This document shows positions 3,001-6,000 of a DNA stretch of 7,836 nt, one piece after another. The stretch's first letter is position 1; the number at the start of each line of letters is the position of its first letter. The stretch is taken from positions 1 through 7,836 of IMG/VR virus record IMGVR_UViG_2548876956_000009; one strand, given 5' to 3'. The DNA is from a virus (taxonomy: Duplodnaviria; Heunggongvirae; Uroviricota; Caudoviricetes). Position numbers: made by a program.

Positions 3001-6000
3001 TGATTCGGATGTCTGGTCACGCAGCTGGTTGTCGCAGTGCCAGCACAACACCATTGCGCCGGTACCATAACGGTGAATGACGGTTTCGCTGTGATGATAA
3101 TCGCCGTGTGGCCACTGGCAGGATTTAATATGGCGCAACAGCCAGTCAGACAATGCACCAGCACCACCAGCAGCACGAATCACCCGTGCGTTACTGAAAA
3201 ACGGCAGCAATGTTTTGTCTTCCACCAGCGGCTGGCGAACGGCAGGAACGACCCCGGACGGCAGATTACGCATGCTTTTCGGTTCCGGCCCCACCAATAC
3301 CCGGGTATTGTGGAATACCGGCATGGATTCACGGCCCGGCTTAACGATCACCAGCCCGAGTTCCGGTACCAGAACAGGTCGAAGTAATACCCGCACGTTA
3401 CCTCCAGATCCGTTGCTGGAATGTGCGGGACGGACGCGGTGGGCGTTCGGAGTAAGGAAGCCTGACGGAGATTATCCAGTGACGATAATCGAGGCTGAGG
3501 GCTTTCTTAATCTCGTATCCGTGTCTGCGGTAACACTGAATCAGCCATTCGGCCTGTTCTTCAGTGCATGGAGGGTGTTGGTACCAGTCGGTTTTAAATA
3601 CGCGAGAACGCCGCCCATGCCTGCTGGCACGAACGGCATCAGAATTGTGATTTTTGGTATTGTGCGCCATTTGTTTTCTCTGCTGGCGCAGCAGGTGCCA
3701 GTTGTTCAGGCTGGCGTGCGAATTGTAAACCAGAATGCCAGGAAAAAACAAAACCCGCCGAAGCGGGTTAAGTGCGGGTGCGTTGAGGATGCCTGACACA
3801 TCAGAGGTGGCGAGGGATTCTCCCCCGCCTGGTCTCTTACTCCTCAGGTTCGTAAGCTGTGAAGACAGCGACCTCCGTCTGGCCGGTTCGGATTCGTACC
3901 TCGCAGAGGTCTTTCCTCGTTACCAGTGCCGTCACTATGACGGTTAAACAGATGACGATCAGGGCGATTAACATCGCCTTTTGCTGCTTCATAGCCTGCT
4001 TCTCCTTGACCTTTCGGTCCGTAAGAGGCAATCTATATGTGACGAGCATATAGGGGCCTCACTTCGATTTATAGTCGGGTGGGGCTTTTATCTATCTGCC
4101 GTTGGTGTTCATGCCCGAGGCAGATAGCCTCAAGCACCCGCAGCAATTCTACTTAACTCTGCCGTTACAGCAAACCGTTTTCGCCCGATATGGGAATTCC
4201 CATATCGGAATGAATTCAGTTCACCTGGCGAGGCTTAGCGTACAATTTTTTCCGTTTTGTGAGCTGCCCCTACATGCCGCTGGCGCGGCATCCGGAAAAA
4301 GAATCCACGTCCTGAAGGACGTGGAGGATGTCAAGTGCCTTTCCTGGTCCAGCCATATTTTTTGAATGCAGGCGCCGCTTCATCGGTTTGTAGCCATTCT
4401 GCAAATCGACGGGTTTCATCATTTGCATCCTGACGTACTGTAATGTTCATATCACGCCATATCACGTAGTCTGGCGCTATTTCCACGACATCACCAATTT
4501 CTGGATTACTGGCTGCCCAGTCAGCCCAGGTTATCCAGACATCTGCTCCAGGCTGATTCTCAAGAGCCTTACGTGCAGTTCCGCTATTGGGCGCATATAA
4601 AATAATATTTTTTCGGATTGCGGCGACAGTTTCTATATTCCCTTTACGTCCGGCAATATCTTCCCAGACGCCAGTGCCTGATGTATTACTGGTACCACCA
4701 CCATCATTAACAATTACGCCAATCCCGGGTCTGGTCAGGTCGTCAATACTCCGGATATTTTTAGGATTACCTTTCTTTACCAGTAAAATACTTTTTCGCA
4801 GATAAAGAGGCTGAATATCTTTTTCACTGAAGCTGTCTTTATGGTCCCGAATGATAGCCAGAGCAGATTGTTCTGATGCGCCAAACAAGATATCTGCATT
4901 TTTTTTGGCATCTTCATTCCATTTGTTCTGTGGACCGTAATGAACGTTCACTATAACACCTGTTTTTTCGGCATAAAGTTTGGCTGCTTCAAGCAAGGCT
5001 GTATGCGGGCCACCAGGACCATACAGATTGATATCAGCATAAGCAGCAGAAGACAGGAATATTAAAAAACCTGCCATTATGTTCCTCATAAAAAACTCCT
5101 TTTATTGGTTATCATGAAATAAAATTATAAACACTACAAATAATATATATTATATCCAGATAAACTTATCCGACTTTACCTCGTGCATAGCTTGTTATTT
5201 AAAGTTAACAAAATAAGGAAAATTATACGCATATTGAAGAGTATAAACCTTACATGTTGATTACATTTTTGTAATCAACATCCTGTTTGGAATAGCCAGC
5301 CTTTAATGGATAACTATTTCTGACAATGCAATGAGTATAATCAAGTCCATCTTCCACTGAGAATTAGAGGCGGCATGCTTTTTCCGGCTCTTGCCGGATA
5401 TCCGTAATTGTCCATAATCTGCAGATTTATACCTTCTGCATGACCTGTCAGCGAAAATTTGTCCGGTGTTTCTACGGGAATGACATCAAAAGTTACACGC
5501 ACTCGCGTTACCGTGTAGACCTACTTTCCTGCACTTGCAAGATCACAGTGGTGTAACCGTAACAGGAATTTATTCTCTGGACCGGCAGTAAATCCCTGAG
5601 TGGCGTGGTTCCCATATCAATTTCCCGCCAGGCAGCCTCCATTGCCAGCGTACAGGCTGGAGCCATGACCTGCCCTTTAAATCTGGCCCGACCATCCCAC
5701 CGGACGTGTTCTTCTCCCCTGAACTTAGGTACAGTCATCTCCAGTGGCACAAAAGTGTCAGCGCCATGATTTTTGACCGTTATCGCGCTACGGATATTTT
5801 GTTGACTGGTGAAAATCACCCCGCAGAATCAGGCTTATTCCCTTAACCCGGGATTTCATCCTGACCGCCGCCTCACTACGACCAATCAGACTGCCGATGC
5901 ATTTTACCTTCATTGTTAGTATCATGATTTCAGGCCTGCACCATCCGCTCATTGCCCGGACTTCCGACAAATCCCGGCAACCATATCCCGGTGCTTGTTC

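Follow-up and report, generated by a model that had tools for sequence, protein, structure and literature searches.

We analyzed a 7,836-nucleotide (nt) stretch of Caudoviricetes DNA (record IMGVR_UViG_2548876956_000009; hereafter the window, to whose full length all coordinates refer). Within it, region 5341-5830, located between a DUF1627 winged-helix gene and the AcfC-family adhesin gene paa, contains two abutting small open reading frames (ORFs), for which a previous reading of the sequence alone had offered three explanations: a novel small-protein pair, one gene split by a frameshift, or a decayed remnant. The two ORFs and the gene fragment from which they derive are as follows.

5819 (GTG, 103 codons) or 5738 (ATG, 76 codons) to 5510-5508 (TAA), minus strand: ORF A (ORF list and sequence)
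5502 (GTG) to 5343-5341 (TGA), minus strand: ORF B, 53 codons, in a different frame from ORF A (ORF list and sequence)
5755-5291, minus strand: fragment of a papH/pixH-type minor pilin gene, equivalent to nt 71-550 of the 588-nt intact gene (blastn)

Identity of the region

Both ORFs were found exactly where the sequence-only reading had placed them, on the same strand, in different frames and 5 nt apart (5507-5503). The weakness of their ribosome-binding sites was also confirmed, as all three starts are poor in pairing or spacing compared with most window genes. The duplex energies with the anti-Shine-Dalgarno sequence are -2.2 kcal/mol for GTG 5819, -5.2 kcal/mol for ATG 5738 (whose GGAG directly touches the start codon, with zero spacing) and -3.0 kcal/mol for GTG 5502, whereas most real genes of the window show stronger values of -6.5 to -10.6 kcal/mol. 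Contrary to what had been thought, the gap contains a further coding signal besides the two ORFs, a phage ORF of 54 amino acids (aa) at 5952-5788 that overlaps the top 43 nt of the region. A total of 69 ORFs of at least 40 aa, mostly spurious, occur in the window, and the length of ORF A or ORF B is not above chance in it. The coding signal of this region is real only because it was inherited from an ancestral pilin gene.

Neither ORF had been thought to resemble a family that could be named. A search with the frame-corrected conceptual fusion, which the same reading had suggested, nevertheless revealed homology to the PapH/PixH minor pilins: in a large-database search, the joined frames matched 195-aa proteins, some of them named PapH/PixH (E = 1e-56), and in a phmmer search against PDB they matched 2J2Z_B, 'PAP fimbrial minor pilin protein' (E = 3e-50, residues 3-160 of 173). 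The similarity to PapH holds only for this fusion, and searches of Pfam and NCBIfam gave no match for ORF A or ORF B separately, nor for the joined sequence. PapH is the minor pilin that terminates and anchors the fibre in P pili. At the DNA level (blastn), the fragment is 85.8% identical to an intact gene on plasmid L008, 85.4% to one on plasmid L009 and 84.8% to a chromosomal one (L003), and the alignment contains two gap openings comprising 15 nt in total. The pilin fragment continues beyond the lower edge of the region, from 5341 to 5291, and in the three-frame translation of the minus strand it runs in frame A, then C, then A again.

The suggested comparison with intact genes was also carried out and showed a single 588-nt ORF in Pix/Pap-type operons. 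In such operons, chromosomal as well as plasmid-borne, the intact 195-aa relatives always occupy the second structural-gene position; the gene order is PapB, major pilin, PapH-like protein, usher, chaperone, PapJ, pilin and adhesin. We therefore conclude with high confidence that the region is a non-functional relic of a PapH/PixH-type chaperone-usher fimbrial gene and that the two ORFs are its broken pieces. Its pseudogene status was already known from RefSeq, and in this respect the finding is ordinary: in every genome inspected, RefSeq/PGAP annotates a 534-bp pseudogene (window 5783-5250) as 'fimbrial protein; frameshifted; internal stop'. What is added here is the PapH/PixH-type assignment, the exact lesions, the scar of an IS21-family insertion sequence (IS) and the boundary of the paa cassette.

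Lesions, alleles and constraint

Three-way and five-way DNA alignments with intact genes were used to map the lesions of the fragment.

Between 5589 and 5588, minus strand: 10-bp deletion (CAGAACAGCC in intact genes), the true first frameshift
5523-5521, minus strand: in-frame TAG in place of the CAG of intact genes, a nonsense change (Q to stop at nt 313; translation 'GK*VYT') in the true frame of the pilin
Between 5355 and 5354 (placed within 2 nt), minus strand: 5-bp deletion (GGAAT in intact genes), the second frameshift

In addition, the first 70 nt of the pilin gene, with the start codon and signal peptide, are gone, and so are its last 38 nt, which encode the C-terminal strand and in whose place the paa cassette is found. 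The 12-13 C-terminal residues that are absent include a beta-strand and the conserved penultimate Tyr (...YYAALRFKLDYE). The fragment thus contains no uninterrupted ORF of ~195 codons with a start and a Sec signal peptide. It sits between a phage ORF and paa, and the major pilin and usher genes that flank such a gene in a chaperone-usher operon are missing there. In pilins, the C-terminal beta-strand is needed for chaperone binding, as in PapD-subunit complexes. Judged by its sequence, any product of the fragment would lack both an export signal and the chaperone-binding C-terminal strand.

These lesions explain how the two ORFs arose. ORF A is pieced together from several sources: its first ten codons overlap with the 54-aa phage ORF, codons ~13-21 lie within the IS scar, the middle part is the N-terminal half of the pilin, and the last 27 codons are out-of-frame read-through. 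ORF B, which starts downstream of the TAG codon, follows the central part of the pilin frame as far as the 5-bp deletion, after which its last four codons (GRWT) and stop are out of frame. Neither ORF A nor ORF B is a gene; both are accidental open stretches produced by frameshifts.

The idea of one gene split by a frameshift was right in that both ORFs come from a single gene. The other part of it did not hold, since no single frameshift correction rescues a gene that has lost both ends and, in addition, contains two deletions and a nonsense codon. A related possibility is a single live gene, either read by programmed ribosomal frameshifting or broken by a sequencing or assembly indel, for which the sequence-only reading had pointed to 5505-5520. 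In its favour, ORF A and ORF B adjoin each other in different frames, and the deletions remove 15 nt in total, bringing the sequence back into its original frame. However, the true breaks lie at the three sites listed above, the first of them 80 nt upstream of the ORF A stop and not at the ORF boundary; a TAG codon interrupts the true frame between the two deletions; and the sequence lacks a start codon, a signal peptide and the final 12 codons. Moreover, the scarred fragment is present with at least 98.8% identity in ~573 of 5,426 complete Escherichia coli genomes, among them O157:H7 (island OI-57), O26, O111, O103, O121 and O145, and its lesions recur in 9 metagenome contigs. Lesions found in so many independent complete genomes are not sequencing errors, and this explanation is effectively refuted. 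The option of a decayed remnant is supported by the truncations, the two deletions, the TAG codon and relaxed constraint.

Constraint was examined on the window branch, where 48 substitutions are distributed over the three codon positions as 14/12/22 (p = 0.17 against a uniform distribution). Nonsynonymous changes account for 28 of the 48; among them are two W to R, two G to V and the stop. PixH of strain 536 had been meant as an outgroup for polarising this branch; it proved too close to the ingroup, and conservation among 110 intact homologues was used instead. The frame-corrected fragment violates 3 of 22 invariant columns and 14 of 65 columns conserved at ≥95%, whereas the 110 intact homologues themselves show a mean of 0.1 violations and a maximum of 2. 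Several alleles also disrupt the frames. In the O145:H28 allele, ORF B is cut short after 3 codons by the loss of 1 nt at 5491, and O103-type alleles have lost the GTG start of ORF A (5817 G>A) and carry a mutated conserved pilin Cys (5654 T>A). In strain 2013C-4830, everything upstream of 5316 was lost to IS elements and paa was kept. Substitution patterns and alleles show no constraint on ORF A or ORF B. A further variant concerns the GGGG run at 5819-5822 (minus strand), where an allele shorter by one G joins the 54-aa ORF in frame to ORF A, yielding a 147-aa chimeric ORF (P0007, 8 member sequences); this fusion is another sign of unmaintained frames.

The sole family match of ORF A is phrog_29700, a family of 76 positions and unknown function that covers ORF A residues 28-103. 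All of phrog_29700 is made up of the 76-aa form of ORF A, and the family was simply built from annotations of the same pseudogene piece. The ORF A product has been deposited at NCBI as 'nuclease PIN' (P0006), a name also given to the 330-aa gene in the adhesin position of the Pix-type operon of plasmid pR2-2 (L009 6844-7836); it looks like a propagating mis-annotation. Phage depositors name the ORFs 'hypothetical protein'.

Position in a prophage had been given as a reason to look for defence or anti-defence genes. This lead was not substantiated: in hmmscan against PADLOC, none of ORF A, ORF B, the 54-aa ORF and Paa matched any family, and one strain dispensed with most of the fragment while keeping paa. 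No intact known gene was found on the other strand either, which had been named as a finding that would overturn the note; neither the plus-strand ORFs nor the third minus-strand frame of the region matched a family. Positions 5200-5900 contain no Rfam family, and their promoter and terminator motif counts are not above chance. The novel small-protein pair can likewise be set aside, as neither frame is conserved among alleles and both are pieces of a pilin gene. A more general form of this idea is that ORF A and/or ORF B are functional small proteins, such as a neofunctionalised cytoplasmic pilin fragment, possibly a moron or a defence/anti-defence factor. Both ORFs are open in most alleles, the region lies on the transcribed strand of the early-right operon, and ORF A forms a PHROG of unknown function, albeit one derived from pseudogene-piece annotations. 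We consider this explanation very improbable, given the weak or misplaced Shine-Dalgarno sequences, the patchwork composition of ORF A (phage-ORF overlap, IS scar, pilin and out-of-frame tail), the absence of a defence or other family match and the deletion of most of the fragment in one strain. What little variation exists among alleles is mainly nonsynonymous or disruptive, comprising start loss, a Cys-to-Ser change, the 1-nt deletion in ORF B and the G-run fusion.

One apparent decay intermediate was rejected. In Logan contig L007 (ERR13033386, 1199 bp; protein P0113), a major pilin gene precedes a pilin sequence whose 5' end is intact and which shares the deletions of the fragment. The alleles of the contig match those of plasmid L008 in the 5' half and those of the O103-type prophage in the 3' half, and the change from one set to the other falls within 33 nt that are identical in the two. 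Judging from these alleles, L007 is probably a de Bruijn assembly chimera, at best a recombinant, and the 105-aa P0113 entry is probably spurious.

Junctions and prophage setting

The fragment is bordered by an IS remnant at its 5' end and by the paa cassette at its 3' end.

5783-5756, minus strand: solo 28-nt terminal inverted repeat of the IS21 family, sequence ATAACGGTCAAAAATCATGGCGCTGACA, matching right termini
5293-4268, minus strand: paa cassette, consisting of an AT-rich promoter region, paa and terminator hairpins (comparison with IncF plasmids)

The IS21-family 28-mer, given as TGTCAGCGCCATGATTTTTGACCGTTAT, is identical to the right termini of three IS21-family elements at 25/28, 24/28 and 23/28 positions. 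It occurs once in the window, with 0 occurrences expected by chance. The outer CA end of the repeat (5756) abuts pilin nt 71 (5755), the junction being ambiguous by 1 nt. The element boundary was set from more than 3,000 plasmid IS21 copies, among which homology ends exactly at the junction point (L011 595-598); the copy on pCFS3246-1 has a truncated left end and was unusable for confirming the inverted repeat. On the other side, phage homology stops at ~5781-5788, next to the scar. The ORF list and a pattern scan revealed no istA or istB and no second inverted repeat in the window, and the remnant is a solo end, not an element. In E. coli 536 (L013 1-156), an IS21-family istA pseudogene lies just upstream of an intact Pix-type operon; together with the scar beside the fragment in the window, this IS21-family trace may point to a recurrent association.

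The ~1-kb paa cassette starts exactly where pilin homology ends and abuts the 3' end of the fragment at 5293-5291, truncating the pilin. Copies of it on two IncF plasmids (L010 and L011) show 86-89% identity over window 5293/5283 to 4268 only. Outside the cassette, their flanks are unrelated, and no pilin sequence is present in either plasmid locus (~9 kb each). Since the identity is limited to this span and the flanks are unrelated, the paa cassette is an independent module. One of these paa-carrying IncF plasmids also carries the STa enterotoxin gene.

Several small elements accompany the cassette. At its start, ~170 nt upstream of the paa ATG, is a perfect 10-bp inverted repeat, GTTGATTACA-AAAA-TGTAATCAAC (5256-5279, minus strand), which is identical on L010 and imperfect on L011 and is a candidate operator for a paa regulator. 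Two hairpins follow the paa stop (4268-4330, minus strand): CCACGTCC-TTCA-GGACGTGG, followed by a T-run, and ATGCCGC-GCCA-GCGGCAT. The latter forms the right edge of the cassette, and an inverted copy of it is found elsewhere on L010 (2879-2856).

The position of the fragment raises the possibility that it is kept as non-coding DNA with a role in cis for paa, for example by spacing or insulating the gene, supplying read-through transcription or regulating it from upstream. In prophage form, the fragment is always directly upstream of paa, a recognised adherence factor (adfO in OI-57; PMC8565820). However, the paa cassettes of plasmids retain just the ~200-nt AT-rich upstream stretch (5293-5090), beyond which their DNA is unrelated and free of pilin sequence, and strain 2013C-4830 keeps paa with the fragment cut at 5316. 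There is also no excess of promoter or terminator motifs and no RNA family. We regard such a role as very improbable.

The window represents the early-right/nin region of a lambdoid prophage, with all genes on the minus strand. Its other features relevant here are listed below.

7464-6718, minus strand: DnaC-like gene
6746-5949, minus strand: DUF1627 winged-helix gene
5952-5788, minus strand: 54-aa phage ORF (PGAP coding sequence WP_122996371.1, hypothetical protein; phrog_30109, E = 4e-17)
5089-4331, minus strand: paa, AcfC-family adhesin (Pfam SBP_bac_11, E = 1.5e-34; PGAP 'AcfC family adhesin Paa')

Downstream of paa follow hokD with the sok RNA, DUF968, rusA and a Q-like antiterminator gene. 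The start of the 54-aa ORF overlaps the DUF1627 stop (ATGA), and the ORF shows ~80-82% nucleotide identity to 'DNA-binding protein' genes on ~90-kb plasmids, with homology stopping near 5781. Despite its overlap with the region, this ORF is phage backbone and lies outside the relic. Two RNAs were detected above the Rfam gathering score: the sok antitoxin RNA (103.9 bits) at 3990-4139 (minus strand), adjoining hokD, and the small RNA STnc100 (104.3 bits) at 204-370 (minus strand), downstream of the Q-like antiterminator gene.

A stretch of 901 nt around the region matches 544 complete-genome records of E. coli at 99-100% identity. In phages without the insert, homology is lost near 5980 and regained near 4181; as a whole, the IS scar, pilin fragment and paa fill a variable moron slot of phage backbones. 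The DUF1627 gene, 54-aa ORF, IS scar, pilin fragment, paa and hok/sok (~3744-6723) form one module moving between prophages, and in metagenome contigs reaching past it, homology breaks at 6723 and 3744. The host prophages of the module differ in their replication genes, which are of the DnaC type in the window and L001 and of the O/P type in L002.

History, significance and comparison with known systems

The fragment, its lesions and both junctions can be read directly from the DNA, and from this anatomy we infer the following order of events. The pilin gene would first have been interrupted at nt 70 by an IS21-family element, in a plasmid or island that carried paa as well. An IS-mediated rearrangement (e.g., cointegration followed by deletion) could then have carried the IS end, pilin fragment and paa cassette to a lambdoid prophage, where they would have filled the variable slot that separates the DUF1627 gene from hok/sok. 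The IS body would later have been deleted, leaving its last 28 nt, and the pilin fragment may have drifted neutrally since. In the relic reading, which we hold to be very likely, the fragment has no function as a gene. It shares its strand with the early-right operon, which makes passive co-transcription with this operon probable.

Several observations weigh against this account. Pfam PF00419 (Fimbrial) does not score the fragment, as hmmscan of the fusion and of each piece returned no family with E up to 10; a precomputed PF00419 match is present in most intact relatives, is weak for P0002 and is weak or absent for some PapH-like proteins. The nonsynonymous share on the window branch is 58%, compared with roughly 75% expected, and the branch is thus not fully neutral, which implies that some of this divergence predates the loss of function and arose in a lineage that has not been sampled. 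The fragment is also highly conserved (≥98.8% in ~573 genomes). Recent clonal spread of the prophage module predicts such conservation equally well, and it therefore has little power to detect or exclude selection. Finally, a donor locus (papH::IS21 beside paa) was not found in complete E. coli genomes, GTDB or metagenome searches, and for this reason the historical steps stay inference. Two GTDB matches to the junction of IS end and pilin were chance 20-mers in unrelated metagenome-assembled genomes, and all 9 metagenome matches to the junction belonged to the same prophage block; none of them is a donor.

A bolder view, to which we give only a very slight chance, is that the prophage has co-opted ORF A or the transcribed fragment, for instance as a small cytoplasmic protein or an RNA modulating host fimbriae or paa. 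In a modest version, the IS21 scar, pilin fragment and paa record the capture by a phage of a plasmid-borne adhesin cassette. If true, co-option would explain the persistence of the fragment beside paa in all major lineages of enterohemorrhagic E. coli (EHEC).

The relic itself carries little biological weight, and it has some value for annotation hygiene. Its ORFs circulate as 'hypothetical protein', 'nuclease PIN' and a PHROG of unknown function, although they are dead pieces of a pilin gene, and recognising this origin spares the effort of pursuing them as possible small proteins or defence genes. In addition, the two junctions, one with an IS21-family end and the other with a plasmid-type paa cassette, provide a plausible route of paa/adfO into OI-57-type EHEC prophages, which is of possible interest for the evolution of that virulence island.

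Among known systems, the fragment resembles PapH (PDB 2J2Z chain B, PapD-PapH complex) and PixH by sequence homology after frame correction. It is up to 81% identical to intact E. coli PapH/PixH-like proteins and retains their motifs GEEHV.WDGR and F.G.V..PACTL and the second Cys (HHCDL), in separate frames. Unlike them, it lacks a start, a signal peptide and the C-terminal 12-13 residues, contains two frameshifting deletions and a nonsense codon, and is orphaned from usher, chaperone and major pilin genes. The source gene family is represented by Pix/Pap-type operons of E. coli, both chromosomal (536, L003-L006) and on plasmids (pEsST2350_SE_2 and pR2-2). The closest intact DNA relatives are found in these operons, with 84.8-86.4% identity over window 5755/5747-5291; no sampled operon exceeds 90%, and hence none is close enough to be the direct donor. 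In contrast to such operons, the window contains no other operon gene.

With regard to IS21-family elements (IstA/IstB), positions 5783-5756 resemble the conserved right terminal repeat and end at the element boundary; unlike those elements, only 28 nt are left, without istA, istB, a second end or a recognisable target duplication. In the accessible literature on the OI-57 adfO-ckf locus, we found no mention of the pilin remnant or the IS21 scar. The genes adfO (z2053) and ckf (z2054) have been described for OI-57/prophage CP-933O (PMC8565820). The adfO(paa)-ckf(hok) locus of OI-57/CP-933O in EHEC O157:H7 and the PPompW prophages represent the same locus as that in the window, and paa and hokD with identical flanks are found in both, at 97.5-100% identity.

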